The notes: a model not told the origin generated them from the sequence alone. DNA of 64,000 bases from an uncultured Spirochaetota bacterium (GCA_937872225.1 CALMRZ010000065.1:7007-71006), one strand, 5' to 3'; counted from the first letter of the stretch, positions 827 to 37,550 are shown. Numbers and translations: made by a program.

Positions 827-872
827 ATACACCCCCCGCTTCTATATTCTCAAAAATACACGAAACAATCAT

Positions 873-894
873 TCTACTTATAACTTTAAGTTAG
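873..894. promoter_or_regulatory. Nested palindrome ATAACTTTAAGTTAGAAGTTAT (inner AACTTtAAGTT) about 45 bp upstream of the WYL regulator start; candidate autoregulatory operator
   Basis: Inverted repeat read directly in the sequence, lying between the WYL start at 826 and the end of the DnaA-like gene at 942. Confidence 0.3.
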
Positions 895-941
895 AAGTTA
901 TGATGTATATTTCAACTGAATAATTTTGATCTTGGATGAAT

Positions 942-1529
942 TTATTGTATTTCTATAATTTGGCCCCGATTGATACGGGATTTAAGCTTTTTGTTGAAAC
1001 TTGTATATTTTTTTGGATGAAATAATCCTGAAACAACAATCATTTTGCCCTTATTATACAAGTCGTTAATGACATGACATACTTCAGTCTGAGTCTCTTC
1101 TTTATCCGTCAAATCGTCAAAATCATCAAGTAACAACATATCAAGATTAAAGTATTGATTAACAAAATCGTCCCCCGTCCTTTCCCTAATCGATTGGATG
1201 AAATCATGTACGAATTTGTAAGTTGGTATGTATATGATTCTATTCTTAGGAATTTCATTGATTAATGCATGATATGTGGAAATGAGCAAATGTGTTTTCC
1301 CTGAACCAGTCCTCCCATATAAATACATTATATTTGGTCCGGTCCATGAATTAGAAGCTAATTGGGAGCACATCTTGAACGCCTTTTTATTTCCTGGTCT
1401 TACATCAAATGTTTTAAAATTATAAATATTATTAAATTGTATTCTATTCGTTTTCATTGAATCAGCCCAATTGACTATTGAGGATAATATTGATACTAAT
1501 TTGAAATCAATAAAATGCATGTGACTCAA
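942..1529 (-). CDS. Stand-alone DnaA/Hda-like AAA+ ATPase (DnaA domain III only, no DNA-binding domain IV)
   Basis: Walker A is LYGRTGSGKTHLL and Walker B is LLLDDFDDL. The spacing and the C-terminal GKMIVVSG...LKSRINRGQIIEI resemble the sensor/box region of DnaA domain III and Hda. The protein is 195 aa and AT-rich. Confidence 0.6.
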   Translation of the reverse strand: MSHMHFIDFKLVSILSSIVNWADSMKTNRIQFNNIYNFKTFDVRPGNKKAFKMCSQLASNSWTGPNIMYLYGRTGSGKTHLLISTYHALINEIPKNRIIYIPTYKFVHDFIQSIRERTGDDFVNQYFNLDMLLLDDFDDLTDKEETQTEVCHVINDLYNKGKMIVVSGLFHPKKYTSFNKKLKSRINRGQIIEIQ

Positions 1530-1563
1530 AGTTAGATGTAATTAGAAAATAAATTAATATATT

Positions 1564-1669
1564 TGACATAACAATGTCAATAATGCATTCTAATATTTAA
1601 ATAATATTTTAAAGAGTTGGAGCCTTAATATTAAAAAGTAAAATTCATTGAGATAAAACAATAGTCTCA
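1564..1669. promoter_or_regulatory. Divergent promoter region with two palindromes: TTGACAtaacaaTGTCAA (1564-1580) and TGAGAtaaaacaatagTCTCA (1649-1669)
   Basis: Inverted repeats read directly. They lie between the minus-strand ATPase gene and the plus-strand 1672 gene, and the first includes a TTGACA -35-like hexamer. Confidence 0.25.
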
Positions 1670-1671
1670 AT

Positions 1672-2295
1672 TTGAGGTATTATATGTATTCTGATAAAAT
1701 AAAACTGCTTCCATGGGAAGGCTCAAATTATTTAGAACAAAATCCTAAAATACTAATTCTTGGCTTATCAATTTATGATAAGAAAAAAAGTAAACATGTT
1801 GTACAAGAATATATTGAGGGTTTAATAAATGATGACTGGAACTACCCATTCTTTACAAAAATTCAAAATATATTTTCTAATCCAAATCATTGGGATGAAA
1901 TTACACCAGAAAGATATGCCCTTAATAAAAAGCTCTTCTGGGATGATGTATGTTTTTATGAATATATTCAGGAACGAATGGACAATCCCAAACAGAAAGT
2001 ACCAGCAAAATATTGGGAAAACTCGAAAGGAGCATTCAAAGAAATATTGCAGAAACTTAAACCTGATATCGTAATTGCCTTAGGATACGAAATGTATATG
2101 AACTTACCTCAAGAAGGTTCAGAAGGGATTCTAATTAAGCATGGCAACAACATAATGGAGACATGGAAATATAATATTTCAGGTAACGATACTTATGTCT
2201 GCCAGGTTCAACATCCTTCTTCGGTTGGTTTTAAACAAGATATATGGATAAAGCTATTTGAAGTTTTTTTAAAAAAATTTAGTAAATTGAAATAA
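1672..2295 (+). CDS. Hypothetical protein, possibly a UDG-fold (uracil-DNA glycosylase superfamily-like) protein lacking the canonical GEAPG motif
   Basis: A beta-strand-like KILILGLSIYD lies near the N-terminus, DIVIALGYEMY sits mid-protein, and QVQHPSSVGF lies near the C-terminus. Spacing and order resemble UDG family motifs 1 and 2 (HPS). This is a weak call from pattern only. Confidence 0.35.
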   Translation: MRYYMYSDKIKLLPWEGSNYLEQNPKILILGLSIYDKKKSKHVVQEYIEGLINDDWNYPFFTKIQNIFSNPNHWDEITPERYALNKKLFWDDVCFYEYIQERMDNPKQKVPAKYWENSKGAFKEILQKLKPDIVIALGYEMYMNLPQEGSEGILIKHGNNIMETWKYNISGNDTYVCQVQHPSSVGFKQDIWIKLFEVFLKKFSKLK

Positions 2296-2369
2296 TACAA
2301 GAGTAACTAGCTCATAGAGCAATAAAACACACTTTAATTTTATATTTTATAATTTATCATGGAGGGCTT

Positions 2370-2621
2370 ATGGGAAATTATTATTGCGAATATTGCGGGG
2401 CAAAAGATACGAATATTCATCATTTAACATCTGGCCCATGCCAATATCATCCCAATGGCCCACTCAAAGGGAATCATAAACTTTATGAAGGAAGTGAAAA
2501 AACAAAATATTTTTGTAAATATTGTGGTGCCTCAGATCCCAGTCTCCATCATTTAACATCTGGTCCATGCCAAAAACACCCCAAAGGGGCTTTAAAGGGT
2601 TACCATTCTCCGGCATTATAA
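2370..2621 (+). CDS. Small protein with two tandem ~38-aa Cys/His repeats (C-x2-C-x9-HH-x5-C-x2-H), putative zinc-binding
   Basis: The two repeats are YCEYCGAKDTNIHHLTSGPCQYHPNGPLKGNH and FCKYCGASDPSLHHLTSGPCQKHPKGALKGYH. A GGAGG-like RBS (ggaggg) lies 6 nt upstream of the ATG. Confidence 0.5.
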   Translation: MGNYYCEYCGAKDTNIHHLTSGPCQYHPNGPLKGNHKLYEGSEKTKYFCKYCGASDPSLHHLTSGPCQKHPKGALKGYHSPAL

Positions 2622-2694
2622 AGTTTCAAAGGTACTGTCGTCGGATCCTGTCTTATGGACCCCAGTGAAGGGAGATGATAAGAAAAGACTTCAA

Positions 2695-3009
2695 TTATTG
2701 ATCGTATCCTGCCGTTAATAGCCACTCACCGCTTTGAAGATGAGTAAACATTTGTCCTTTTCTAGGACCCATCGTACAATCATATTTAATAAAACATCTG
2801 GAACAGATGCAGCCCCATGCATTCTTTTCACCATCCAGGCATGCGTCCAGCATAAGCCGTTTATTATTGAACGAAGCTCCGCACAGATCGCATGAATGGG
2901 AGTGTCCGGCGAAAATGATCTCTTCTTCTTGTAGAAGATTCTCATGCGCTATAAGTTGAAGCTCGAATTCATCCTGGGGCTCACAGAAAGGTGTATATGT
3001 TTTCATCAT
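2695..3009 (-). CDS. Cys-rich hypothetical protein (104 aa)
   Basis: The ORF carries multiple C-x2-C pairs (HSHSCDLCG, CICSRC); I could not assign a family. Confidence 0.4.
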   Translation of the reverse strand: MMKTYTPFCEPQDEFELQLIAHENLLQEEEIIFAGHSHSCDLCGASFNNKRLMLDACLDGEKNAWGCICSRCFIKYDCTMGPRKGQMFTHLQSGEWLLTAGYDQ

Positions 3010-3091
3010 ACCATCAATTCTCCTTAAACAACTAGCTTAATAGAAAGTATAGAATGTACCATGACAAATAGTGTCACATCGCATTAATTTT

Positions 3092-3544
3092 TCATCTGGA
3101 AGATCCCTTCACAAGAAAACGATCAAGCTGATTGGCGAAAGCCTGGCGGTCTTTCTGTCTGAAAGAGGAAGGCCCGCCCGTGTCCATTCCGCTGTTCCTG
3201 AGAAGGTCCATTAAATCGCGCGTGGCAAGGCGGTCCTTGATGTTTTCCGGTGTATAAAGATCGCCCCGGGGATTGAGCACGAAACCGCCTTTGGCGATCA
3301 CACGGTCCGCAAGGGGCAAATCAGCGGAAATGACAAGGTCATTAACCTCCACCATTTCAACAATGCGGTCATCCGCCACGTCAGGACCGGCCGAAACTTC
3401 AATACATGAAATATACGCCGAGCCCGGTACGATCAGGCACTGATTTGCAACAAGCACAAGGGGAACATGAACGCGCTCGGCCGCACGATACAGTATTTCT
3501 TTTACAACGACCGGGCATGAATCCGCATCCACAAGTATCCGCAT
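3092..3544 (-). CDS. YaiI/UPF0178 (DUF188) family protein
   Basis: The N-terminus [13 protein letters not shown] matches the characteristic MxIWVDADACP start of the YaiI family. GC-rich, unlike its neighbours. TAATG overlap with the upstream RNase H gene. Confidence 0.7.
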
Positions 3545-4110
3545 TAAACGCCTCTTTTAATCTCTTCCATCCATGATCGGAGGGCCTTCCTGACTTCCCT
3601 GTCGACGATGGAAAATATCCGATGAACAGTGTCATGCGAGGCGACACGGGAATGCCCCTCGACCTTGATAACGTTCATGTTCAGTTCATCATATAATGAA
3701 TATAATTTCCGGTATAATGACGCGTTCTTTATCTCGGTTTTTGTTTTCTTGCTGATGTAATTCTTGTTCTCCAGTCCGGATCTTCTTCGCGATAAATCCG
3801 CGACGCATTGGGAATCCGTGTACACTGACAATTCCCAATGGCGGGAACCGGTTGCTTTTTGATAATCCTCGAGCGCCCATACAATCGTACGAATTTCCAT
3901 TTGAGTTGAACCGGCGCCCGTACATCTGCGCAGCACCAACCGCCCGATTATATCCGCTTTATCAATACTGTCGGGACCGGCTTCCAGGAGCGCGGCAGGC
4001 AGAAAAAGATATCCCCCAACGCCGCGCTTGAGTTGTGAATTCACGCTTGCATCCGTGAAAAGAACATCACCTCTCACCAGAGAGTTTTCTTTCTTAGCCA
4101 TTTCAATCAC
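3544..4110 (-). CDS. RNase H (type 1) domain protein
   Basis: DEDD-type motifs in order: TDAS (Asp), [10 protein letters not shown] (Glu), YTDSQ (Asp), KVEGHS...HD. 188 aa. Translationally coupled to yaiI. Confidence 0.65.
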
Positions 4111-4516
4111 CCGTAAATGTAAACCATATCAAACAATTCTATTATATAATATTCAATGTCAATTACATCTTGATTTCAGAGCGATAATGAGAACCCGCGG
4201 GAAGCGGGATTCTTACTTCTGTCATTTACAAGTGGATTTCTGCCCCGCCTCCACTCTGATCAAGCATTGGCAGCATTTCACCTATTGCCGGAGAAGAGCA
4301 AAGTGTTGCGGATTTTTAAAACACGACCGTTGTGAAGTATAAATGACAATTCAAAATGATTTTTCGAAAAAGTGTAAAATTAAGCTAATTTATTAAAACC
4401 TCGAAATACTAATAAAATATAGCCATTGGGTTCTAGGCATCACCCTGACTCAATGGCAAGCGATAGAAGATGATTTTGAATATATCTTCTAAAATTTTAT
4501 TTTAAGGAGGTTTCTT

Positions 4517-4789
4517 ATGAAACCCTATAAATCAATTTTTAATACCAGCAGCAATACTCGACGATTTACCAGAGTATCAAGGCATCACAAACAACGCGAA
4601 AGTATGAATAGAAAACCAATCATACCGCCGAGATATATTCCACTAACGGAACGTCTCGGTGAGCAAGTAGAAGAAAAGCACGTTACTCCGGTTGTACAAA
4701 ATGTCTTTGTTTTCAATTTTAATGGCGGAGAAAACATTGAGGATGTACTAACCGGAATTCTGAAGTGTATTAAACAGGCAGCACTTTGA
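4517..4789 (+). CDS. Hypothetical protein (90 aa)
   Basis: A strong RBS AAGGAGG lies 7 nt upstream of the ATG, and the terminator hairpin follows. AT-rich. Confidence 0.5.
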   Translation: MKPYKSIFNTSSNTRRFTRVSRHHKQRESMNRKPIIPPRYIPLTERLGEQVEEKHVTPVVQNVFVFNFNGGENIEDVLTGILKCIKQAAL

Positions 4790-4796
4790 TGAAAAC

Positions 4797-4846
4797 TAGA
4801 ACTAAGATTTCAGGCAATTACAGTATTTCTGAAATCTTAGTTCTTT
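4797..4846 (+). terminator. Rho-independent terminator-like hairpin
   Basis: A 14-bp perfect stem AACTAAGATTTCAG/CTGAAATCTTAGTT with a 15-nt loop, followed by TTTATAATTTT. Confidence 0.5.
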
Positions 4847-4912
4847 ATAATTTTCCAAAGAGAATATCTCTAAGGATTACTAATAATTAAACAACTCTGG
4901 GAGGAAGATACC

Positions 4913-5710
4913 ATGTCCGGAATGAGTATTGATGATCGAACCTTAGTCAGATTCTTTTATAAATCAAAAAAGAATTTTATGGCTGAGATGCAGGGGAAAA
5001 TGAAACCTGAACTAATGGATCAAGCTATTAATATGTTTTTTTCACCTAAAAGAAAGAAGTTTACTGACCAGGAGAAAGAGGAGCGAAAAAGACGTATTTT
5101 GAACCAAGTTAGTCGGATAAATCGGGAATTTGGCATAAGTAAAAATTCCATAAAGATAAACCAAAAATCCCAAGACCAAGTTGACCTGCTTGTACGAGAA
5201 TCAGAGTTTTCAAAGAACAGGAAAGACAAACTCAGAATCTTTTTAATAGAATTAATTCGCTGGCGAAAATATTTTGAGAGTCTTACCTACGAACAGCTGA
5301 GGGCCATGGAGGGGATATACTGGGACGTTACAGTTCATGCCCTTAATGGTCTCACTCCCCTGCCATCAACCCTTTTAGGTCGCTGGGTATCCGGTGATGT
5401 GCCAGCAAGAAAGCCTGCTGATGCGTTTATGAACGATATCATAGCAAAAATAAAAAATGAAGATAAGAAGTTATTATTCATGGACGCCTATTACCTTGAT
5501 AAAACCGGAAAAAAGTATGTCCTTAAAAAGTCTGTTACAGAAGAACAAAAATCTGAGATGCGAAAAATCATGAACGAAATCAGTTATAGCAATAAAAGCG
5601 GTACAAAATATATCGATTTCCTAAAATACCTGATTGATAAAAAGGTAGTTGAGTTAAAAGTCCAATATTCAACGCTTGGGAAATGCAAATACTATAAAAT
5701 TAATATATAA
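4913..5710 (+). CDS. Hypothetical protein (265 aa), Lys/Glu-rich
   Basis: A GGGAGGAAG RBS precedes the ATG. No recognisable motif. AT-rich. Confidence 0.5.
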   Translation: MSGMSIDDRTLVRFFYKSKKNFMAEMQGKMKPELMDQAINMFFSPKRKKFTDQEKEERKRRILNQVSRINREFGISKNSIKINQKSQDQVDLLVRESEFSKNRKDKLRIFLIELIRWRKYFESLTYEQLRAMEGIYWDVTVHALNGLTPLPSTLLGRWVSGDVPARKPADAFMNDIIAKIKNEDKKLLFMDAYYLDKTGKKYVLKKSVTEEQKSEMRKIMNEISYSNKSGTKYIDFLKYLIDKKVVELKVQYSTLGKCKYYKINI

Positions 5711-5805
5711 TCTATACATAACTGCATAAATGTATTTATTTCTGGGGAAACATAATTGGAGAAAAAACAGCATTTTCAATACCCCAGAATTCTAAATGCC
5801 CACTT

Positions 5806-6002
5806 CCACCATCCAGATCATGAAATCCAGTAGGATATCATCAATCAATTGGTTCGAATACTGTCTTCCCGTGGGAGCATGGGCGCTTTTTCGAACTCCG
5901 GGAAGCGCCTTTTTATTTTCCGACCATTGTTGTTGCAATTATTGACAAAATGGTCGGTTCGGATAATGTCTTCCCGCAGCATTACGATAAGACTCGAACT
6001 CC
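5806..6002. repeat. Conserved intergenic repeat, copy 1 (~197 bp): 3' conserved block, terminator hairpin GGGCGCTTTTTCGAACTCCGGGAAGCGCC+T-run, then TTGACA-16-TAATGT promoter
   Basis: About 90% identical to 6705-6902. Contains an internal direct repeat GGTTCG(A/G)ATA(A/C)TGTCTTCCCG. The promoter elements are at 5942-5969. Confidence 0.7.
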
Positions 6003-6081
6003 ACAAACTACACTTAGAATAATTTATAGAAATCAAGATTTTTCTCTTGATTATTGTAACCCATTGGGTTACATTAATTTT

Positions 6082-6360
6082 GTGATAAAGAGTTTTAAAC
6101 ACAAAGGGCTGGAACAATTCTTTGATACTGGCAGCAAAAAAGGAATCCAGCCCGACCATGCATCGAAACTCGAACGTATTCTGGACAGGCTGGCAGCTGC
6201 CAAAAAACCGAAAGACATGAACCTGCCAGGTTATAAATTACATGTGTTATCCGGCAATAAGGCCGGTACCTGGGCAGTGAGCATCAGCGGTAATTGGAGA
6301 GTGACATTTAAATTTGAAGGTGAAGATGTGATAGTCGTTGATTATATTGACTATCATTGA
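6082..6360 (+). CDS. higB: HigB toxin (RelE/ParE superfamily mRNA interferase), GTG start
   Basis: (V)IKSFKHKGLEQFF...GNWRVTFKFEGEDVIVVDYIDYH aligns end-to-end with HigB (MIKSFKHKGL...ANWRITFQF...YEDYH). The ORF-track start at 5950 reads through the repeat and is rejected. Confidence 0.85.
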   Translation: MIKSFKHKGLEQFFDTGSKKGIQPDHASKLERILDRLAAAKKPKDMNLPGYKLHVLSGNKAGTWAVSISGNWRVTFKFEGEDVIVVDYIDYH

Positions 6361-6380
6361 AATCAACAAGGATTAACATC

Positions 6381-6680
6381 ATGAATATAACAAAAAGAAA
6401 ACCTGTGCATCCGGGGATCGTACTTCTTGAAGACGTGATAAAACCCCTCAATCTGACAATTACCAAGGCGTCTGAATGTATGGGTATATCCAGAAAAACA
6501 CTTTCAGAATTGGTGCATGGCCATTGTACGCTGACCCCCGAAATGGCCGTGCGGATTGGCGAAGCCACAGGTACCACCCCGGAAAGCTGGCTGGAAATGC
6601 AAAACAGGCTTTCTCTATGGGAAGCCAAACAGCATAAACCCCGAGTCAAACCATTGGCTGATATGTGTTGTGAAGCATGA
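6381..6680 (+). CDS. higA: HigA antitoxin (XRE-family HTH)
   Basis: PVHPGIVLLEDVIKPLNLTITKASECMGISRKTLSELVHGHCTLTPEMAVRIG...WLEMQNRLSLWEA matches HigA. An AGGA RBS lies 7 nt upstream of the ATG at 6381. The ORF-track start at 6357 is a TTG overlapping the higB stop. Confidence 0.85.
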   Translation: MNITKRKPVHPGIVLLEDVIKPLNLTITKASECMGISRKTLSELVHGHCTLTPEMAVRIGEATGTTPESWLEMQNRLSLWEAKQHKPRVKPLADMCCEA

Positions 6681-6704
6681 TAGATTTTAATCCTGTTTAC
6701 TGCC

Positions 6705-6902
6705 CCACCATCCAGATCATGAAATCCAGCAGGATATAATCAATCAGCTGGTTCGAATACTGTCTTCCCGTGGGAGCATGAGGCGCTTTTCGAAATCCGG
6801 GAAGCGCCTTTTTTATTTTCCGACCATTATTGTAGCGATTATTGACAAAATGGTTGGTTCGAATACTGTCTTCCCGCTGCATTACGATAAGACCCGAACT
6901 CC
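6705..6902. repeat. Conserved intergenic repeat, copy 2 (~198 bp): terminator hairpin GGCGCTTTTCGAAATCCGGGAAGCGCC+T-run, then TTGACA-16-TACTGT promoter
   Basis: Begins 25 bp after the higA stop. Promoter at 6842-6869, about 115 nt upstream of the mqsR ATG, the same spacing as copy 1 to the higB GTG. Confidence 0.7.
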
Positions 6903-6983
6903 CTTAAAGGCATTCATATCAATCATTTTTCTATTGACCATTCTGTATATTTTTAATATATTGACATTGTAAAGATATTATAA

Positions 6984-7286
6984 ATGGATAAATTTAAGGC
7001 ACATTATTCGCTGTTGCGGGTTAAGGCCCTGGTCAAAGAGGGCCGATATCGAATTACCGCTGCAGCTATTAAAAGCGGTTTTGAGGATTTTTCACTATTA
7101 TCAGAAGATCTTGCCGAATGTGAGCTCAGGCTTGAAGCATCGGACTTATACAAGTCAATGACGAGCCGTTTTGATGCAACCTTGTAGCAGGACGTTTATC
7201 ATACAAGGATTATTACCAAAATAGCCTATATTAAACTGCAAATTCTTGATGATGAAACGGTGATAATCTCATTCAAGGAGAAATGA
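6984..7286 (+). pseudogene. mqsR: mqsR toxin homologue interrupted by an in-frame TAG at 7185-7187 (conserved Trp codon TGG->TAG)
   Basis: MDKFKAHYSLLRVKALVKEGRYRITAAAIKSG...SDLYKSMTSRFDATL*QDVYHTRIITKIAYIKLQILDDETVIISFKEK matches MqsR, with the stop where MqsR has TIWQDVY. The reading frame continues intact to a TGA overlapping the mqsA ATG. Confidence 0.75.
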
Positions 7287-7287
7287 C

Positions 7288-7713
7288 ATGAAAGAAAAAA
7301 AATGGGTTGATTGCCCTTCCTGCGGGTCTAAAGGAACCATGAAATACAAAAAAGGCATGTCGGAAACATACCGCAACCCCGGATATGAACCGATAACCGT
7401 GACCAACCTTGACGGATATTTCTGCTCTGCCTGCGGTGAAGGGATATACAGCATTAAATCGAGTAAAATCATAACATCGAAGCTGACTGATGAAAAAGCG
7501 CGCCAGGACTCAAAACGGGTCGTCGCCTCTGACCTCATTGATGTTGATTCGGTTGCGAAGAAACTTTCGGTTACCAGGCAGCGAGTGCACCAGATGATGG
7601 ATGAAGGTAAAATATCATATGTGTATGTCGGGAAGCACAGATTCCCAGTCAGGGATAATGAAAGCTCGTATAAGAAGTTAAAGAAAAGAATACATACGAT
7701 AGCACATAATTGA
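7288..7713 (+). CDS. mqsA: MqsA-like antitoxin (N-terminal zinc-ribbon CPSCG...CSACG plus C-terminal XRE HTH)
   Basis: The zinc-ribbon plus HTH domain order matches MqsA, and the start overlaps the mqsR frame end (TGACATG). Confidence 0.75.
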   Translation: MKEKKWVDCPSCGSKGTMKYKKGMSETYRNPGYEPITVTNLDGYFCSACGEGIYSIKSSKIITSKLTDEKARQDSKRVVASDLIDVDSVAKKLSVTRQRVHQMMDEGKISYVYVGKHRFPVRDNESSYKKLKKRIHTIAHN

Positions 7714-7726
7714 TTATTTTATACTT

Positions 7727-7840
7727 CCACCGCCCAAATTATAAAATCCAGCAGGATATCATCCAAGAGCTGGTTCGATAACTGTACTCCCTTGGGAGCA
7801 GAATAGGACGTTTTAGAACTCACGGTAACGTGCTTTTTGT
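7727..7840. repeat. Conserved intergenic repeat, copy 3 (partial, more diverged): left block plus terminator-like hairpin GGACGTTTtagaactcacggtAACGTG + T-run
   Basis: Begins 14 bp after the mqsA stop. Shares AAATCCAGCAGGATAT..TGGTTCGA.A.CTGT..CCC.TGGGAGCA with copies 1 and 2 and lacks the promoter half. Confidence 0.55.
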
Positions 7841-8069
7841 TTATATGGGAACGCTTCGTGGTTCCGGTAAGGGCGGGATCATTATCCGTCAGCCCAGCTC
7901 CCGGTTGAATTTCTATCTGCTCATTCATGGCCATTATAGGCTCTTTCATCAAAAAGATGTAAGGCTTTTTCCATTGGATTCCCACAGTCTCTTTATTGAC
8001 AGCGATGCGCTCAGTCTTCTCATTTATTATCCGGGACTTTTTATCGTAATCAGCCGACGGCGGCGCACC

Positions 8070-27181: not shown

Positions 27182-27610
27182 ATGAAAAGCGGAAAAAATC
27201 ACTCATCGACATTCAAAAAGGTCATCCAAAGCGATAAAGATGAAGCCAGGAAACTTATCATGGAAGCGCTTTCATTCCTGAACGACCTGCAGGAGTCGGG
27301 CCTGGCCTGCGAGATATCCGAATTCAACTTCAGGCTTGCCCTTGACGAAGCCATGGAAAACGCCATAAGTCACGGCAACGGCTATGATGCAGCAAAAAAG
27401 ATCCACCTGACCATACGGGGCTTTAAGAACAAGATCGACATGACCGTCGAAGACGAGGGGAATGGGTTTAAACCGGAAACCGACCCGCGGATGGAACTTC
27501 AAAAGAATTTATTCGCCTCCCACGGCAGGGGGCTCTGCCTCCTGAACACGCTGGGCTCCATACAGTGGAACAAGAAGGGAAACAGCATCAACGTTGTGCT
27601 GAAACACTGA
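27182..27610 (+). CDS. HATPase_c-type anti-sigma-factor-like Ser kinase (RsbW/SpoIIAB-like)
   Basis: N-box-like ENAISHGN and G-box VEDEGNGF. 142 aa. Confidence 0.6.
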   Translation: MKSGKNHSSTFKKVIQSDKDEARKLIMEALSFLNDLQESGLACEISEFNFRLALDEAMENAISHGNGYDAAKKIHLTIRGFKNKIDMTVEDEGNGFKPETDPRMELQKNLFASHGRGLCLLNTLGSIQWNKKGNSINVVLKH

Positions 27611-27631
27611 TGCAACGTCAGGGATGTCCCC

Positions 27632-28930
27632 TTAGTATCCCGCCATCGCCTCCACTTCCTTCACCGCGGTTATCGCGGCAACGGTCCCGTCCGCCACGGC
27701 GGTCGTTATCTGCCGGTACGGCTTGCTTCGCACGTCGCCGGCCGCGAACACGCCCGGCACATTGGTGTGCAGCAGCTCGTCTGCCGCAACGTAGCCCCAC
27801 TGGTCCAGTTTCAAGGCGCCGTTAAAGATGCTTATATTCGGCTTCAGTCCGGCGAAAATAAAGACGCCGTCGGTAGCCATTTTTCTTCTCTCGCCTGTTT
27901 TCAGGTCTTCTATGGTGACGTCCATGCCGCCGTCAGGCCGCCTTTCAAAGGCCCTGGGCTCATGCTCAAAGATGAATTCTATTCTCGGGTTGGCGAAGGC
28001 TTTCTCCTGGGCCTCCTTGTTGGCCTGAAGCTTGTCGAACTGGTGGACAATGGTGACCTTCCTGGCGAACCTGGTTATGAAGAGGGACTCCTCAACGGCG
28101 GAATTGCCTCCGCCGATGACGACGACTTCCTTATTATCGTAATATTTCGCGTCGCAGGTTGCGCAGTACGAGATGCCCTTCCCCTTGTATTCGGCTTCGC
28201 CCGGCACATTCAGCTCCCGGTATGAGGACCCGGTGGCTATTATTATCCGCTTCGCACGGATCGTCTCGAAACCGTCAACAAGGATAGTCTTTGCCGCGAG
28301 ATCAACGTTCGTCACTTCGACGGCCTGGCGGAACTCGACACCGGCGTGCTTGGCCTGCTCCGTCATGAAATGGGTAAGCATGAAGCCCTCAACGGGCTTT
28401 TCGAAGCCGGGATAGTTCGACACCAGGTGGGTCGTGGTCACCTGACCGCCCGGCAGGGCCTGGTCAACGAGGATGGTCTTCACCTTCGCCTGGGCGGCGT
28501 AGATGCCCGCGGTCAGGCCCGTCGGCCCGCCGCCGATGATGAGGATATCGCAGTCGGTCATGACCGGCTGCACCATGGCCCGGAGCTCATCTGCCTTTTT
28601 CTTATCGATCAGCAGTTCCAGGTTCCCGACAAGATCAGATCTTCTGATCCCGCCGCTCAGGCGCTGTCCCACTTCTTTGCCGTCCTTGAAAAAAATCACG
28701 GTGGGCGACGACATGACGCCGAGCTTCTCGGCCAGGGGCCGGTTCTCCTGCCGGAACATCTTCATGAACCTGATGTCCTTGCCGTATAGTTCGCTCAACG
28801 GTTCGAATTTAGCCGCCAGCGCCTCACAGGGAGGGCATTCCGTCGAATAAAAGTCCAGCACGACGCTGCCGCCGCCCAGCACTTCGCTTTCGAATTGAGA
28901 TGCGTTGATGTACGATATCAGTTCCGACAT
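27632..28930 (-). CDS. Thioredoxin - thioredoxin reductase fusion protein
   Basis: N-terminal thioredoxin fold with a CPPC redox motif (YSTECPPCEAL). The TrxR part has FAD/NAD GxGxxG motifs (IIGGGPTG, VIGGGNSA), the redox-active CATCD, and GVFAAGD. Confidence 0.8.
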   Translation of the reverse strand: MSELISYINASQFESEVLGGGSVVLDFYSTECPPCEALAAKFEPLSELYGKDIRFMKMFRQENRPLAEKLGVMSSPTVIFFKDGKEVGQRLSGGIRRSDLVGNLELLIDKKKADELRAMVQPVMTDCDILIIGGGPTGLTAGIYAAQAKVKTILVDQALPGGQVTTTHLVSNYPGFEKPVEGFMLTHFMTEQAKHAGVEFRQAVEVTNVDLAAKTILVDGFETIRAKRIIIATGSSYRELNVPGEAEYKGKGISYCATCDAKYYDNKEVVVIGGGNSAVEESLFITRFARKVTIVHQFDKLQANKEAQEKAFANPRIEFIFEHEPRAFERRPDGGMDVTIEDLKTGERRKMATDGVFIFAGLKPNISIFNGALKLDQWGYVAADELLHTNVPGVFAAGDVRSKPYRQITTAVADGTVAAITAVKEVEAMAGY

Positions 28931-28977
28931 GATGATTCTCCTGTTTTCTGTGCCGACCGCGGCCCGCCGCGGACGCG

Positions 28978-30294
28978 TTATTCATTCCCCTTGTCGAAAT
29001 AGAGCGAGATCCCCATTTCAAGCAGCGGCAGCACCGGACGGCAGTCCGGGGCATGGAGCTTCCCGGTCCTGTTCCGCGCAACCGAACCGCACCCGCCGCC
29101 GCAGGCCAACTGAAGGCTGCACCCGGCGCATTCCGGTATGGTGGTCACGTCCCGCGATTCCCATTCCTCGATGGCGTCCTCCCGCCTGGTCTCCGCGGGG
29201 TAGAAGGTGCCGACCTCTTCGCCGTCCTTGCCCACCGTTGCCGTGCAGGGATAGATCTTCCCGGCGTAGTCAAAGGCCCATTCGCTTTTGCATCCGGGGC
29301 AGGAATCATAGAGGGGCACCGGCAGATCTCCATTGTCGAAAAGGAAGCGCGAGACCGAATAAGCGGGCCGGTGAAATTCCAGCACGTGGGGGTGACGCTG
29401 GATGATCTCATAGAGCTTCTCGTACAATCCCGCCCGCTCGAAGAGGCGCGCGCTGTCGGCCTGGCAGCGGTGGAGTTCATAATTGCGGCCGAGCTGGGTC
29501 TTGAAGAGGGGGTTCTTCGTCCAGCCCTTCTCCATGGCAAACCAGGCAAGTGCCGGAAGATCATCTATGTTTTCCCGGTCGATGACCATGCGAAGATTCA
29601 CGGGAAAGCCCCTTACCAGGGCCCCGTCGATCCCCGCCACGATGCGGTCGAAGGTACCGCCCCCGCCTTTCAACGGACGCCGCCCGTCATGGACGCCGCG
29701 CACGCCGTCCAGAGTCACCTGTATCTCGCGGATCGAACCCTTTGCCAGAACATCGAGGTAATCGCCGAGATGGTAGCCGTTGGTCACCACCGCTACCGGT
29801 ATTCCCCGTTCCGCCGCCTTTGTGATGATCTGCTCAATACTCGCACGGGAACCGGCTCCGGGAAGAAGCGGCTCGCCGCCGAAAATGGTGATGTATTTCC
29901 TCTTGTCAGAAAATTCACGAGTGATATAAGCATAGAAAGCATTGATGACCTCCTCTGTTAACGGCGACTTATCCTTTGCGTATCCCTCCTGGTAGCAGTA
30001 CGAGCAGGAGAAATTGCAGGAATACCAGGGCACGAAAAACAGCTGCACCTCGTTCGATTCGCGCTCGTCGAGAAAATCGAGGTATTTGAGCCTGTAAAGG
30101 CGTTCTTCCTCCATTTCATCAACAAGATACCCTTTCGCGCTGTATTCTTCCACATCGGCATACGTTTTTTCGCTGATCTCTCTCGCCTTTTCCGGCGTAA
30201 GAATATCCGCGTTCCCCGAAAGGGGGTTGATAATGAAATAGTTTTCCGAATCCCTGATCTTGCCGAATATATTGTGTTTTGAAAAAGTTTTCAT
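28978..30294 (-). CDS. Radical SAM protein with C-terminal SPASM-type Cys cluster (start taken at MKTFSKHN, 30292-30294)
   Basis: CxxxCxxC is CNFSCSYC. The C-terminus has CPGC...CTATVG...CAGCSLQLACGGGCG, typical of SPASM/twitch domains. An AGGA RBS precedes. The longer ORF-track start at 30444 is rejected. Confidence 0.7.
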   Translation of the reverse strand: MKTFSKHNIFGKIRDSENYFIINPLSGNADILTPEKAREISEKTYADVEEYSAKGYLVDEMEEERLYRLKYLDFLDERESNEVQLFFVPWYSCNFSCSYCYQEGYAKDKSPLTEEVINAFYAYITREFSDKRKYITIFGGEPLLPGAGSRASIEQIITKAAERGIPVAVVTNGYHLGDYLDVLAKGSIREIQVTLDGVRGVHDGRRPLKGGGGTFDRIVAGIDGALVRGFPVNLRMVIDRENIDDLPALAWFAMEKGWTKNPLFKTQLGRNYELHRCQADSARLFERAGLYEKLYEIIQRHPHVLEFHRPAYSVSRFLFDNGDLPVPLYDSCPGCKSEWAFDYAGKIYPCTATVGKDGEEVGTFYPAETRREDAIEEWESRDVTTIPECAGCSLQLACGGGCGSVARNRTGKLHAPDCRPVLPLLEMGISLYFDKGNE

Positions 30295-30502
30295 TGTAAC
30301 GAATCCTGATCGTATCATTGTATCCGTGACGCCCGCCATGCCGGTACCCCGGCATGGCGGGCCCGGCCCCTTAATCGTGGCACCCTGCCACGATGGAAGA
30401 GATCTTCGCGCAGCACTGGGCTGTCGCGCAGCATTGTGCGGCACTCTTCTTCTTAATGAGTGTCTTCATTTAAAACATCTCCTTATTATATAAATTCCTT
30501 CA

Positions 30503-31144
30503 TTATTTATTGGCCGATATGGTCCAGCTTACAACCTCGATGGCGCCTTTCGCATAGGGGGCGCTTTCCTCGAGTATTGTGACATCCGAAAAACCGGCCG
30601 CCCTGACACCTTCAAGGTACTCATCGCGGGTCACTGACCCGGCCCAGCATTCGGCGACCGCCTGCGGGTCGTTCCGGTAGCGATCGGGGACAGGGGCCGT
30701 TGAATAGATATCGCTCACAATGAAGCGGCCGCCCTTCTTCATGACGCGGTATATCTCCTTCCACACGCGCCTCTTGTCCGAGGCGTGGTTGATGGTGCAG
30801 TTGGATATGACCACGTCGGCAACATCATCGTTCAGCGCGATCTTTTCCAGTCCAGATTTCACGAAAGAAACATTTGTTACTCCGAATTTTTTTGCCGTGG
30901 CCCTTGCCTTTTCAAGCATGCCGTCGGAAACATCTATGCCATACACAAACCCCTCCGGGCCGACGATATCCGCCATGCGGAGGGCGTCCGCGCCCCTGCC
31001 GCTGCCCAGGTCCACGCAGGTTTCACCGGGCCTCACCGCCGCGCGCTCCAGGGCTCCGCCGCAGGAAAGGCAGCAGTTCGACTCCGCGAGGTTGCTGTAC
31101 CGCGCATTAATTGTGTCGAGTTGTATCGGCGTCGACGTCCCCAT
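30503..31144 (-). CDS. arsM: Arsenite S-adenosylmethionine methyltransferase
   Basis: The conserved Cys cluster NCCLSCGG lies upstream of the SAM motif VDLGSGRGAD. ISNCTIN...DKRRVWKEIYRVMKKGGRFIVSD closely parallels ArsM (ISNCVINL..DK.RVL.EAFRVLKPGGRFAVSD). Confidence 0.75.
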   Translation of the reverse strand: MGTSTPIQLDTINARYSNLAESNCCLSCGGALERAAVRPGETCVDLGSGRGADALRMADIVGPEGFVYGIDVSDGMLEKARATAKKFGVTNVSFVKSGLEKIALNDDVADVVISNCTINHASDKRRVWKEIYRVMKKGGRFIVSDIYSTAPVPDRYRNDPQAVAECWAGSVTRDEYLEGVRAAGFSDVTILEESAPYAKGAIEVVSWTISANK

Positions 31145-31568
31145 TGTCGTCCTCCATGGCGAATATCAGGAGGCGCAGGGCCTTCTGTATGACGGCAAAT
31201 TCAGTCTCTGACATTCGTGCCCTTATTTTGTCTTCACATTGTTTCCTGAATACGGCGGTATCATGGTTCACCGAAATTCCTTCTTCCGTCAGCGATACCC
31301 GGCTGTAGCGCCTGTCATGTTCATCAGCTTCCCTGCGCAAAAATCCTCTGGTAGCAAGTTTGTCTATAATCCTGCTCATGCGCGATGGCGAGAGGGTGTT
31401 TCTCTTTGCCAGGTCTATAATGGGTACCGATTCCCCCGGATTGAGGGACGCAAGAACCTGTAGTTCCTTTGCGGTGAGACTGTTATCCTCGCCGCTGCTA
31501 TTGTTCAGGTGGCAGCACTGCTCATTGAGCATCATTATTGTCTCTACTATATTATATTGCATATCCAA
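31107..31568 (-). CDS. MarR-family transcriptional regulator
   Basis: The winged-helix region LTAKELQVLASL...RRYSRVSLTEEG is typical of MarR. It overlaps arsM by 38 nt, suggesting an operon. Confidence 0.65.
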   Translation of the reverse strand: MDMQYNIVETIMMLNEQCCHLNNSSGEDNSLTAKELQVLASLNPGESVPIIDLAKRNTLSPSRMSRIIDKLATRGFLRREADEHDRRYSRVSLTEEGISVNHDTAVFRKQCEDKIRARMSETEFAVIQKALRLLIFAMEDDNGDVDADTTRHN

Positions 31569-31727
31569 TTGCCCCTGTCAACTGTTGCTAATGGCAAATA
31601 TATATAATGCGAGCATGAATGTCAATACATTTTTTTAGTATTTTATAAAATTCTATTATTTATCAAGGTTTTTAAAATTTATTTAAGGATTTTAGCGAAA
31701 ACACAAATAATTGCAGGTATATAAAGA

Positions 31728-33849: not shown

Positions 33850-35016
33850 CTATCTTCCCCTCCTCATCTGCTGGTTCATATTGTTCCTGTTGAACCGGCG
33901 CATCTCGTTCATCTGCTGTTTCTTCAGTTCCATTCTCTGCTGCCGCGCCTCCCGCTCACGCTCCTCGCGTCCATACCCTTTTCCATCTGCGCCGTCATCC
34001 TGTCTGCTTCCGTCATTCTTCATAGTGGCGCTTCCGGAAGAATCACTGTCTTTCCCTGACATGTCAGCGCCGCTGCCGCCCCTGCCGGCAACAGGTCCGG
34101 CTGCCGCTGCTGACGGCAGGAGAAGATGATCGTATGCCCCCTTCCGCAGGGCATCGATATTTTCGAATATTGCCAATTCTTCGCTTGTCGCGGGAATGAT
34201 CCTGGCTGAATCTGAAATAATGCATTTTTCTCCCGCATGAACAACAATGCTTTCACGACTCCGCCTTGGGGTGACCCTTACACTGTCTTTTTTCATTATG
34301 ACAAGGCTCATGCCCCGGGTTGTCTGCAACAGGAACTCCGTGCCGAGGGATTCGATCCTGGCATTGGGCGTGATGTATTCATATGATATTGTCTCTTCAT
34401 TGCCGTGTATGGATGACAGCAGCAATCCATCATGGAGGCTGTTCTTCAGCACTATCCGGCCGGCTTTTTCCCGGACAAATGAGTCAATCGAAAGATCGGA
34501 CCTGTTTACCAGGGTTATGCTCGCTATTGAACCATGGACGATACGCGTTACGGCTTTATCCGGCACCCTGATCCATCCGCCGTCATAGATCTTCATGCCC
34601 GACACCAGCGGCTTTTCATTTAATGTGATTCCCATGTCAGCGACACCTGCCGTCATGGCGATCCGTCGGGGCCCGGCAGGCCAGTACAGAATGGTCCCGA
34701 TAACAATAATCACGGCAGCGGCTGATGATGCCAGTACGGCCCGGGGATACCTTCTGATATGGTCGAGGAGTCCCTTCGTCCCCGATGGCGTTTCACCGGA
34801 ACGTATTTCGCGCCATGAACGGACAATCCGTTCCTGGATACTGTCATTGAGCCGCACGTGTTGGTACCGTGGCGCTATCGCCGCCGCCAGCCTTTCCTGT
34901 TTCTTGCGGCATTCGGCGCATGAACGGATATGGCCCTCGAACCGCTCCCGCCGGACGGGCTTCATTGTTTCTGCAAGGTAGGCAGCAAGATCTTTGTATG
35001 TCAGATGTTTATTCAC
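33850..35016 (-). CDS. Anti-sigma factor (zinc-finger HxxxCxxC N-terminus, TM segment, FecR-like periplasmic domain)
   Basis: HIRSCAECR motif and a single TM (AVIIVIGTILYW). Directly downstream of the ECF sigma factor. Confidence 0.6.
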   Translation of the reverse strand: MNKHLTYKDLAAYLAETMKPVRRERFEGHIRSCAECRKKQERLAAAIAPRYQHVRLNDSIQERIVRSWREIRSGETPSGTKGLLDHIRRYPRAVLASSAAAVIIVIGTILYWPAGPRRIAMTAGVADMGITLNEKPLVSGMKIYDGGWIRVPDKAVTRIVHGSIASITLVNRSDLSIDSFVREKAGRIVLKNSLHDGLLLSSIHGNEETISYEYITPNARIESLGTEFLLQTTRGMSLVIMKKDSVRVTPRRSRESIVVHAGEKCIISDSARIIPATSEELAIFENIDALRKGAYDHLLLPSAAAAGPVAGRGGSGADMSGKDSDSSGSATMKNDGSRQDDGADGKGYGREEREREARQQRMELKKQQMNEMRRFNRNNMNQQMRRGR

Positions 35017-35033
35017 GCTCTATCAGACCCGCT

Positions 35034-35594
35034 CTATTGTATAACGAATTTGAATACAAACACCGCCAGCAAAATCAGCAATAAAAGCGTAAAACCGTAC
35101 TTTTCCAGCGATTCCGCCAGGTATTCCAGCATCTCCTTCATTTTTCTCTGGGCCGTCCGCTCGGAAATCCCCAGATTTTCGGCTATCTCGCCATAAGTCA
35201 TATCAAGCTCCATCTTCATGATATACACCGACCGCGAAACAGGATCTTTTTTATCTATAAGATCAGATACCCGGTTTCTCAGCTCCTCATATTCAATGTT
35301 TTTTTCGCTGTCACGGGGCGCGTTATAGGCAATATTTTCATCGAGGGGCATTTCCCGCGTTGAGCGGTTTTTCCTCAGGTAATCGATGCAGAGATTGCGC
35401 GCGATACGGTACAGAAAGGCGCGAATGTTGGTTTCATCTATTGCGCGGTCCCGGGAATGCCGAATGAGCCTCACGAAGGCATCATGGAATATATCCTCGG
35501 CCGTTTCCTTTATTTTAACGAACCCGAAGATATAAATAAGCAGTTCCCTGCCGTACAGGGAATACAATTCTTTTAATCGCTGTTCTTCTATCAT
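35034..35594 (-). CDS. ECF (sigma-70 family, group IV) sigma factor
   Basis: Region 2 (DIFHDAFVRLI, FLYRIARNLCIDYLRK) and region 4 (TYGEIAENLGISERTAQRKM). Confidence 0.8.
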   Translation of the reverse strand: MIEEQRLKELYSLYGRELLIYIFGFVKIKETAEDIFHDAFVRLIRHSRDRAIDETNIRAFLYRIARNLCIDYLRKNRSTREMPLDENIAYNAPRDSEKNIEYEELRNRVSDLIDKKDPVSRSVYIMKMELDMTYGEIAENLGISERTAQRKMKEMLEYLAESLEKYGFTLLLLILLAVFVFKFVIQ

Positions 35595-35804: not shown

Positions 35805-36167
35805 CTATTTCGCGAATAACATCTTCAGGGATATCAGCAGCAGCGCAACGCCGAAGATCTTCTCAAGAACACCATTGGATACGGCAGCGGCCAGCCTGGC
35901 CCCGAGAAAACTCCCCGCCAGGAAGCCGACCGCGATAAAAATGGCAGCCTGGAAATCCACATATCCCTGCCGGTAATAAGCCCATGCCGCGAGGATGCCT
36001 ATTGGCGGCACCATGAGGGCCAGCGTCGTGCCCTGGGCCTGGTGCTGGGAAAATCCGAAAAAAAACAGCAGCGCAGGAACGATAATAATGCCGCCGCCGA
36101 TGCCGATCAATCCGCTCAATGTCCCGGCAACCACGCCGAGGAGGATCAATAAAACAATTGTCATCAT
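35805..36167 (-). CDS. TSUP/DUF81 (TauE/SafE-like) membrane protein, single-repeat form
   Basis: GLIGIGGGIIIVP motif typical of DUF81. 120 aa with four hydrophobic helices. Confidence 0.55.
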   Translation of the reverse strand: MMTIVLLILLGVVAGTLSGLIGIGGGIIIVPALLFFFGFSQHQAQGTTLALMVPPIGILAAWAYYRQGYVDFQAAIFIAVGFLAGSFLGARLAAAVSNGVLEKIFGVALLLISLKMLFAK

Positions 36168-36437: not shown

Positions 36438-37550
36438 ATGAAGAATATTCTCTCATCAAGAATCGGCATGATAGTGGCCGGTTCGGCCATCGGGATCATT
36501 GCGGTTTTATTGCAGGCCGCGGGGAACCCGCCGAACATGGGGATCTGCGTCGCCTGCTTCGAGCGCGACATAGCCGGTGCTCTGGGGCTCCACCGGGCTG
36601 ATGTTGTCCAGTACCTGAGGCCGGAAATACCGGCAATCGTTCTCGGGTCGTTCATTATTTCCACCGTCATGAAGGAATACAAGCCGCGGGCCGGGTCATC
36701 AACGCTGATCCGCTTTTTTCTCGGGATGTTCGCCATGGTCGGCGCCCTTGTTTTTCTCGGGTGCCCCTGGCGCGCCCTTCTCCGCCTTGCCGGCGGCGAT
36801 CTGAATTCGCTCCTCGGCCTGCTCGGCCTTGTCTGCGGCATCGGCATCGGAGTGGTCTTCCTCAATAGGGGATACAGCCTTGGGAGATCGCACGACAACA
36901 GAAAAGCCAGCGGATGGCTATTCCCTGCCTTCATGCTGGGCCTCGTGCTTCTCAATGTATCCGGCGTGTCATTTTCCGAAGGCGGGCCCATATTTTTCAG
37001 CGCCAAGGGACCCGGCTCAATGCATGCCAACGTCATTATCAGCCTCGCCGCCGGCCTCGCCTTCGGGGCCATAGCCCAACGGAGCAGGTTCTGCACCATG
37101 GGATCCATACGCGACATCATCCTCGCCCGGGACTTCCATCTCATGACCGGCGTCGCATCACTCCTGACGACCGCATTTATCGGGAACCTTATACTCGGCA
37201 CATTCAATCCGGGCTTTACGGGCCAACCGGTGGCGCACAGCAACCATCTCTGGAACTTTCTCGGCATGACCCTCGCGGGACTGGCCTTTGCCCTCGCAGG
37301 CGGCTGTCCCGGGAGACAGCTCATTCTTTCCGGGGAAGGCGATGCCGACGCGGGGGTGTTCGTCATGGGCATGATCACCGGCGCGGCCTTTGCGCACAAT
37401 CTGTCCCTGGCCGGCAAGCCCGACACCATGGCCGGAGACGTGTTTACACTGGGAGGGCCCGGTATCTATGGCCAGGCGGCCGTTATCACCGGCATCATTT
37501 TCTGCCTCATCATAGGCTTCACCATGCGCGAAAAGCTGACAGTGAAGTAA
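36438..37550 (+). CDS. YeeE/YedE-family inner-membrane protein (thiosulfate/selenium-compound transporter family)
   Basis: Duplicated Cys-containing motifs GICVACFERD and SRFCTMGSIRD (the conserved Cys in both halves), with about 9 TM segments. Confidence 0.7.
   Translation: MKNILSSRIGMIVAGSAIGIIAVLLQAAGNPPNMGICVACFERDIAGALGLHRADVVQYLRPEIPAIVLGSFIISTVMKEYKPRAGSSTLIRFFLGMFAMVGALVFLGCPWRALLRLAGGDLNSLLGLLGLVCGIGIGVVFLNRGYSLGRSHDNRKASGWLFPAFMLGLVLLNVSGVSFSEGGPIFFSAKGPGSMHANVIISLAAGLAFGAIAQRSRFCTMGSIRDIILARDFHLMTGVASLLTTAFIGNLILGTFNPGFTGQPVAHSNHLWNFLGMTLAGLAFALAGGCPGRQLILSGEGDADAGVFVMGMITGAAFAHNLSLAGKPDTMAGDVFTLGGPGIYGQAAVITGIIFCLIIGFTMREKLTVK

Follow-up and report, generated by a model that had tools for sequence, protein, structure and literature searches.

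A cysteine-rich peptide gene conserved between an ArsM-like methyltransferase and a radical SAM/SPASM enzyme in a candidate RiPP-like operon

In a stretch of 64,000 nucleotides (nt) from an uncultured Spirochaetota bacterium (GCA_937872225.1 CALMRZ010000065.1:7007-71006; the whole stretch is called the window below), the minus-strand block 27632-31568 carries open reading frames (ORFs) for a MarR-family regulator, a compact ArsM-like S-adenosylmethionine (SAM) methyltransferase, a radical SAM/SPASM enzyme and a thioredoxin-thioredoxin reductase (Trx-TrxR) fusion. Between the methyltransferase and radical SAM genes we found a fifth gene, a 32-codon Cys-rich ORF (MKTLIKKKSAAQCCATAQCCAKISSIVAGCHD), and the order methyltransferase (about 215 amino acids, aa), peptide, radical SAM/SPASM, Trx-TrxR recurs in distantly related bacteria. 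The reading that we propose, and to which we give even chances, is that of a five-gene MarR-controlled operon encoding a system of the kind that makes peptides that are synthesized on ribosomes and modified after translation (RiPPs), in which the radical SAM enzyme would cross-link the peptide while the ArsM-type enzyme and the reductase would carry out thiol-based, possibly metalloid, chemistry.

Conservation of the gene order

One genome per GTDB species was scanned, which gave 482 confirmed relatives of the radical SAM enzyme; 80 loci were kept and examined for the other module members by tblastn and a loose motif scan. The complete gene order was recovered in approximately 70 of these 80 genome loci, as well as in metagenome loci, and the taxa that carry it (at least five phyla) include Spirochaetota, Bacteroidota, Ignavibacteria, Myxococcota, deltaproteobacteria and Fibrobacterota. 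Gene neighbourhoods were looked up for Spirochaeta isovalerica, for a metagenome-assembled genome (MAG) labelled Syntrophomonadaceae by NCBI and for an Ignavibacteria MAG. Because the same gene order is seen in about 70 independent loci, the arrangement is non-random, and a chance juxtaposition of the genes was ruled out by this recurrence across phyla. The module is absent at loci where the radical SAM enzyme falls below about 35% identity.

The peptide gene

The peptide ORF is located within the approximately 200 nt that separate the methyltransferase stop from the radical SAM ATG, with a ribosome-binding site (AAGGAG) 9 nt 5′ of it. Its orthologues at 77 loci correspond to 72 distinct peptides of about 30-47 aa, which share a conserved N-terminus (MKSL[IV]KK) and a near-invariant C-terminus, A-Q-C-C-[A/S/T]-K-x-S-x-x-[V/I/A]-[A/V/S]-G-C-H-D-stop. 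This core of 16 residues contains three invariant cysteines (CC-x10-C spacing) and is unchanged even where the identity of the accompanying radical SAM enzyme drops to 36-44%. Roughly a quarter of the peptides have an additional upstream CC or CxC, including the window copy, which contains one extra QCCA repeat.

At the invariant residues synonymous codons vary freely, all four Ala codons and both codons for Gln, Cys, Lys, His and Asp being used, which shows that it is the amino-acid sequence that is under selection; all three stop codons occur among the orthologues. The region after the peptide gene of the window folds into a hairpin (minimum free energy -43.5 kcal/mol, z = -4.6), and a strong stem-loop (z <= -2), often with a T-run, was found 3′ of the gene in 53 of 76 distinct loci. 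Stem-loops in this position are common after precursor genes. When 1.84 billion representative proteins were searched without a profile, only free-standing peptides of the same type (30-41 aa) were matched, and neither Pfam and NCBIfam (E <= 10) nor the PDB (E <= 10) returned a matching entry. In-frame TGA (selenocysteine) variants of the peptide, or of the CC-LSC motif of the methyltransferase, were not found across the loci searched. By its codon usage and conservation, the peptide ORF is a real gene under selection.

One locus (L079:4699-7317) holds an apparently decaying copy of the module, with the peptide frameshifted after AQCCAKTSK, the radical SAM gene broken up into several ORFs and the methyltransferase truncated.

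The radical SAM/SPASM enzyme

The radical SAM family of the module is 50-82% identical across phyla. Its cluster motif CX3CX2C (CNFSCSYC, residues 93-100) is invariant in the family, and the SPASM signature (CX9-15GX4C at 332-350, CX2CX5CX3C at 389-402, and C418) is invariant in 13 homologues; SPASM was called by motif, the Pfam SPASM model giving no match to the enzyme. The best NCBIfam matches are CefB, the "Cys-every-fifth" maturase (1.4e-42), TIGR04463 (2e-37), a radical SAM/SPASM RiPP maturase family whose model is named rSAM_vs_C_rich, PapB, Clo7bot, the geopeptide maturase and the SCIFF maturase. All scores are below the equivalog cut-offs (CefB 146 of 600 bits, TIGR04463 129 of 525, PapB 101 of 340, SCIFF maturase 71 of 425). 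By sequence, a single PDB entry matches strongly, that of the SCIFF thioether synthase CteB (5wgg, 2e-15). An AlphaFold model of moderate confidence predicts a β3-α3 unit at residues 9-80, of the leader-recognition-domain type, and in Foldseek the model's best fold matches are CteB (aligned over the full length), SuiB and anSME. More distant radical SAM relatives (28-29% identity) adjoin other small ORFs containing cysteines.

These placements bear on the model of the first-pass annotation, in which a free organoarsenical would receive its C-As bond from an ArsS/ArsL-like radical SAM enzyme and be methylated by ArsM, and the peptide would be irrelevant. The ArsM-like Cys triad of the methyltransferase, described below, suits this model, as does the presence of a Trx-TrxR to meet the reductant need of ArsM. 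The radical SAM enzyme itself speaks for another affiliation: the ArsS (TIGR04167) and ArsL models are not among the best 25 of its 73 NCBIfam matches (all with E <= 1.2e-12), the best matches are all peptide maturases, and the enzyme combines a predicted domain resembling the RiPP recognition element (RRE) with a CteB-like fold and a co-conserved peptide gene directly upstream in about 70 loci. This family placement largely refutes the model, against which the missing ars context also counts and to which we assign a very small probability. Clustering with sulfatase or peptide maturases had been named at the outset as the result that would tell against organoarsenical synthesis, and placement by hidden Markov models gave it, with CefB, TIGR04463, PapB and SCIFF as the best models; the first-pass annotation had also been right to set the SPASM enzyme apart from ArsS and ArsL. 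By its family affinities, therefore, the enzyme groups with RiPP peptide maturases and not with ArsS/ArsL.

The compact methyltransferase

The product of the methyltransferase gene (METHYLTRANSFERASE) is ArsM-like yet no certified ArsM. Its fold is that of a class I SAM methyltransferase, SAM-binding motifs included (Pfam Methyltransf_31, 2.6e-31), its best family is NF008823 ArsM (192.5 bits, profile positions 58-233 of 272), and its best PDB matches are the ArsM structures 5evj, 4kw7 and 4fr0. Residues C28, C116 and C166 align with C72, C174 and C224 of CmArsM, the As(III) ligands, and are 100% conserved in 69 module methyltransferases. In the same 69 orthologues the members of a CC pair (C24/C25), located 3-4 residues before C28, are 93% and 87% conserved. 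The cysteine of the CmArsM disulfide cascade, C44, belongs to an N-terminal region that has no match in the module enzyme; the CC pair 24-25 could substitute for it, a correspondence that is not alignable.

The 120 best homologues of the methyltransferase are all 207-227 aa long, a range that indicates a distinct compact clade, many members of which carry the JGI label "arsenite methyltransferase". ArsM depends on a thioredoxin system as reductant. The pairing of a dedicated Trx-TrxR with an ArsM-like enzyme, on which the first-pass annotation had laid weight, recurs in the module loci and fits this dependence. Arsenic is a possible, unproven substrate of the methyltransferase.

The Trx-TrxR fusion and the MarR regulator

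In most loci the Trx-TrxR gene comes after that of the radical SAM enzyme. Its product contains Pyr_redox_2 (8.6e-56) and Thioredoxin (6.2e-16) Pfam domains and scores 322.8 bits against the TrxR model TIGR01292, slightly under the cut-off of 343.45. Among 65 orthologues, the Trx motif CPPC is present in 54 and the TrxR motif CATCD in 62.

MarR is confined to the spirochaete-type subset of loci. The window protein matches the MarR domain PF01047 with 43.7 bits (cut-off 24.6) and reaches no equivalog cut-off. Two cysteines, C18 and C111, are invariant among 10 module-linked MarRs, a pattern that may correspond to that of two-Cys thiol-sensing MarRs such as OhrR, and residues 17-20 of the window MarR read QCCH, an echo of the QCC of the peptide. 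This two-Cys MarR may be a thiol- or metalloid-sensing regulator. A search for MarR operators detected only AT-rich low-complexity inverted repeats; by eye, we noted a conserved TTGCC-N19-GGCAA element, a candidate operator, in the interval from the -10 box to the start codon of marR, both in the window (31570-31600) and in its closest relative (L007:4700-4730).

Accessory genes and a cousin locus

Bacteroidota loci often carry, instead of MarR, an IS1595-type zinc-ribbon protein, DUF6132, DUF1847, DUF302 and extra thioredoxins. The zinc-ribbon protein, often divergent and upstream, could possibly replace MarR as regulator. Across the loci, the recurrent accessory genes encode thiol-redox or Cys-rich proteins (extra thioredoxins, DUF1847, DUF302, DUF6132, OsmC, rhodanese), and the set differs from locus to locus. 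The locus of Williamwhitmania taraxaci (L087, FMYP01000010.1) and a second one (L088) show an expanded order, DUF6132-methyltransferase-(extra Trx)-peptide-radical SAM-(DUF1847)-Trx-TrxR-DUF302, and in L088 a separate TrxR, a Trx and an OsmC are found upstream of the module.

This neighbourhood is what could be expected if the system served against thiol-redox or reactive-sulfur stress, the CC pair of the cross-linked peptide being a small redox mediator, comparable to the C-terminal CC/CU of large TrxRs or MerA, that is recycled by Trx-TrxR and induced through an OhrR-like two-Cys MarR. Indeed, the two invariant cysteines of MarR, the enrichment of neighbours in thioredoxins, OsmC, rhodanese/CoA-disulfide reductase, DUF302, DUF6132 and YeeE-type transporters, and the carriers, by record titles apparently all anaerobes of sulfidic or sediment habitats, agree with such a role. 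However, it leaves no function for a SAM methyltransferase with an ArsM active site, which is as well conserved as the other genes, and the accessory genes on which it draws vary among loci. We regard it as improbable.

A different context is provided by a cousin locus in the actinobacterium Sphaerisporangium melleum (L078:3840-10979, NZ_BMNT01000007.1), where the radical SAM/SPASM enzyme is 34% identical to that of the window. Before it come an OPT transporter and a 47-aa ORF ending in ...DCCTA...DPDGCE-stop; after it come an ArsM-like methyltransferase of full length, which shares the Cys triad and has a PCC at its C-terminus, and then a TldD/PmbA pair. The locus has no Trx-TrxR. The trio that it retains, in which a CC...GC-acid peptide is joined by a radical SAM/SPASM enzyme and a Cys-triad methyltransferase, is thus more ancient than the module with Trx-TrxR. 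Judged by these neighbours, the trio is wired in the actinobacterial lineage like that of a processed, transported peptide.

Proposed function

From the gene content, the coding status and conservation of the peptide, the family affinities and the conserved cysteines we infer a scheme in which the peptide would be the radical SAM substrate, and which assigns a cross-link type, a methyl acceptor, reductase clients and a MarR signal. The peptide would consist of a lysine-rich leader (MKxLIKK) and the 16-residue core AQCCAKxSxxxxGCHD-COOH. The leader would bind the predicted N-terminal RRE-like domain of the radical SAM enzyme, which would then abstract hydrogen from the core and, by analogy with CteB/SCIFF, PapB and QhpD-type enzymes, most likely form one or more intramolecular Cys thioether cross-links. 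The acceptor of the thioether would be a carbon of an invariant residue such as the C-terminal Asp, Ser, Lys or Gln. The ArsM-type methyltransferase, with its Cys triad and adjacent CC pair, would perform a thiol-coordinated methyl transfer, whose preferred acceptor may be a soft metalloid (As(III)/Sb(III), possibly Se/Te) held on, or handed over by, free thiols of the peptide; S-methylation of the peptide would be less likely. Trx-TrxR would use NAD(P)H to re-reduce the disulfides of the methyltransferase, of the vicinal Cys pair of the peptide, or of both, in each cycle, and MarR, with its two invariant cysteines, would probably sense a thiol-reactive inducer.

A metalloid acceptor presented by the peptide thiols is favoured, with modest confidence, because the methyltransferase triad is invariant and the CC-plus-C ligand set of the peptide has a counterpart in known As(III) sites, for example that of ArsD. 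No protease or exporter is conserved with the module and the core hardly varies at all; both observations point to a carrier or cofactor that stays inside the cell, not to a secreted antibiotic.

Several observations weigh against this scheme. The 192.5 bits of the methyltransferase are under the curated ArsM cut-off of 263, and the N-terminal part of ArsM (approximately 57 profile positions) and its entire C-terminal domain are absent, so that only the cysteines suggest a metalloid substrate. In a census of recurrent neighbour clusters and another of the 150 nearest non-core ORFs, covering approximately 73 loci, no ArsR, Acr3, ArsB, ArsC, ArsA or ArsD recurs beside the module, and the flanks examined in the window contain no ars genes. 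The identification of the methyltransferase as ArsM in the first-pass annotation is retained as to nearest family, PDB matches and Cys triad, and not borne out as to the family cut-off and an ars context. No protease or exporter recurs with the module either, which is unusual for a secreted RiPP and may indicate an intracellular role. The AlphaFold model of the radical SAM enzyme is only moderate (predicted local distance difference test, pLDDT, 71) and poor in the SPASM part. Finally, thioether formation uses up the thiols proposed as metalloid ligands, and the two are compatible only if some cysteines stay free.

The missing ars context and the sub-threshold ArsM score are equally what would be seen in the main rival explanation, a conventional RiPP natural product or a peptide cofactor, without a metalloid, in which the radical SAM enzyme would cross-link the peptide, the methyltransferase would tailor it (S-, O- or N-methylation) and Trx-TrxR would keep its cysteines reduced or provide the radical SAM clusters with electrons. 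Tailoring by methyltransferases is common among RiPPs, the extremely conserved core is like that of peptides of the cofactor or SCIFF type, and the cousin locus with TldD/PmbA and an OPT transporter looks like that of a processed peptide. Nevertheless, an ordinary RiPP leaves unexplained why 69 divergent methyltransferases retain an invariant ArsM Cys triad and a near-invariant CC pair, and why they are accompanied by a dedicated Trx-TrxR, the known reductant system of ArsM; we consider it somewhat unlikely.

A stronger version of the metalloid chemistry, which we hold to be decidedly doubtful, is a peptide-templated metalloid machine, in which the matured peptide would bind As(III), Sb, Se or Te by its cysteines and both the radical SAM and the ArsM-type enzymes would act on the bound metalloid. 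If this is true, metalloid methylation in anaerobes without glutathione would gain its first ribosomally encoded carrier or cofactor, or else the product would be a RiPP-linked organoarsenical with a C-As or methyl-As moiety.

Comparison with known systems

The five-gene RiPP-like operon proposed here is made of parts of known kinds, namely a SPASM RiPP maturase, an ArsM-like methyltransferase and a TrxR fusion. As in the SCIFF/CteB and ranthipeptide systems (PapB, CefB, TIGR04463), a short Cys-rich precursor adjoins a radical SAM/SPASM maturase, here with a predicted RRE-like domain, and, as in SCIFF, the peptide is highly conserved across taxa and not hypervariable. In contrast to these systems, the radical SAM enzyme of the module is far below each curated cut-off, the core motif QCC...GCHD-COOH differs, and the module is tied to an ArsM-type methyltransferase and Trx-TrxR; to our knowledge, SCIFF/CteB/ranthipeptide systems have no ArsM-type methyltransferase and Trx-TrxR fusion.

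The methyltransferase shares with ArsM/AS3MT its fold, its nearest family, the three As(III)-binding cysteines and the pairing with a thioredoxin system, whereas it is only 213 aa long, was found neither in ars operons nor beside ArsR, and is in every case linked to a peptide gene and a radical SAM gene. A radical SAM enzyme is also combined with an ArsM-type methyltransferase in the biosynthesis of arsinothricin (ArsL and ArsM) and arsenosugars (ArsS and ArsM). On the ArsM models of these pathways, however, the module methyltransferase scores 109.6 against 500 and 76.6 against 400, and the module has a SPASM peptide maturase and a ribosomal peptide.

A vicinal CC and a third cysteine are the classical tri-thiolate ligand set for As(III)/Sb(III). 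The peptide core, with its invariant vicinal CC and third Cys, resembles in this respect the As(III) site of ArsD (Cys12-Cys13-Cys18), but there is no sequence homology, ArsD is a thioredoxin-fold protein and not a 30-aa peptide, the spacing here is CC-x10-C, and the peptide is coupled to a radical SAM maturase. Similarly, the Trx-TrxR protein is comparable to AhpF/NTRC-type enzymes, a low-molecular-weight TrxR (CATC) being fused to a thioredoxin-fold domain and AhpF-like models ranking second and third best. It differs from them by its single N-terminal CPPC Trx, by scores below the TrxR and AhpF cut-offs and by being dedicated to one operon.

The combination and the peptide family are apparently new: no curated model covers them in NCBIfam (release 20) or Pfam, and literature searches, whose coverage left out subscription journals so that an earlier description may exist, returned no account of the module. 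We know of no described combination of a CteB-like maturase, an ArsM-type Cys-triad methyltransferase and a dedicated Trx-TrxR.

Operon layout and neighbouring genes in the window

The features of the block are collected in Table 1. With a promoter-like site before marR and a terminator-like hairpin after the last gene, its layout is consistent with a single transcription unit, and the promoter region is conserved in the closest relative, L007. The first-pass annotation had described a minus-strand operon of four genes: marR, arsM, radical SAM/SPASM and Trx-TrxR. The four ORFs are present in this order and at the same coordinates, Pfam and NCBIfam agree with their assignment, the 38-nt overlap of marR with the methyltransferase gene is found at 31107-31144, and the motifs NCCLSCGG, CPPC and CATCD are present in the translations. 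The peptide gene had been overlooked, and the listed start of the radical SAM gene is most likely too far upstream. As listed, the radical SAM ORF (28978-30444, 488 aa) began at a GTG at 30444; this candidate was rejected, its 50-codon extension crossing the hairpin and the separate peptide gene and remaining unaligned in every homologue. The true start is most likely the ATG at 30294 (MKTFSK...), the start common to all homologues.

Table 1. Positions of the operon features in the window.
Feature	Position	Strand	Evidence
Promoter-like TTGACA-17-TATATT, upstream of marR	31597-31625	-	11/12 consensus matches, near-consensus sigma-70-type
marR, MarR-family regulator, 153 aa	31107-31568	-	Pfam MarR, 2.6e-11
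Compact ArsM-like SAM methyltransferase, 213 aa	30503-31144	-	NF008823 ArsM, 9.6e-57
Precursor-like peptide gene, 32 aa	30371-30469	-	Ribosome-binding site, ORF listing, orthologues
GC-rich hairpin with perfect 14-bp stem, directly 3′ of the peptide stop	30331-30362	-	
Radical SAM/SPASM peptide-maturase-like enzyme, 438 aa, with predicted N-terminal RRE-like domain	28978-30294	-	Pfam Radical_SAM
Trx (CPPC)-TrxR (CATCD) fusion, 432 aa	27632-28930	-	Pfam Thioredoxin and Pyr_redox_2
Terminator-like hairpin 3′ of the Trx-TrxR stop	27585-27613	-	11-bp stem, then T-rich tail

Around the operon, a convergent gene (27182-27610, plus strand) ends 22 nt from the Trx-TrxR gene; its 142-aa HATPase_c_2 product resembles anti-sigma-factor kinases and has no evident link to the module. 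Two ORFs related to sulfur transport, a TauE/SafE-type sulfite-exporter fragment (35805-36167, minus strand) and a YedE/YeeE-like "Sulf_transp" membrane protein (36438-37550, plus strand), are located 4-5 kb from the operon, with a pair of extracytoplasmic function (ECF) sigma and anti-sigma factors (33850-35594) in between. In an Ignavibacteria locus (L005), a YeeE-rhodanese pair is directly upstream of the module. The first 8 kb of the window (1-8000) have a G+C content of 33-43%, compared with 50-62% elsewhere in the window, and could be a foreign or mobile segment.

Implications

If the reading of a RiPP-like operon is true, the peptide system of which the window contains a copy is widespread among anaerobic bacteria, tightly conserved and apparently without a name; radical SAM relatives occur in at least several hundred GTDB species. 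That the 16-residue core hardly changes between Spirochaetota and Myxococcota speaks for a specific function inside the cell, for instance that of a cofactor, a carrier or a sensor, and not for an antibiotic under diversifying selection. Counts of "arsM" in metagenomes may include the compact methyltransferase subfamily, whose members may not be arsenic genes at all. The cultured carriers Spirochaeta isovalerica (GCA_014207565.1) and Williamwhitmania taraxaci (GCA_900096565.1) make the chemistry of the module directly testable, and the system would bear on the way in which metalloids are presented to ArsM-type enzymes in anaerobes without glutathione.

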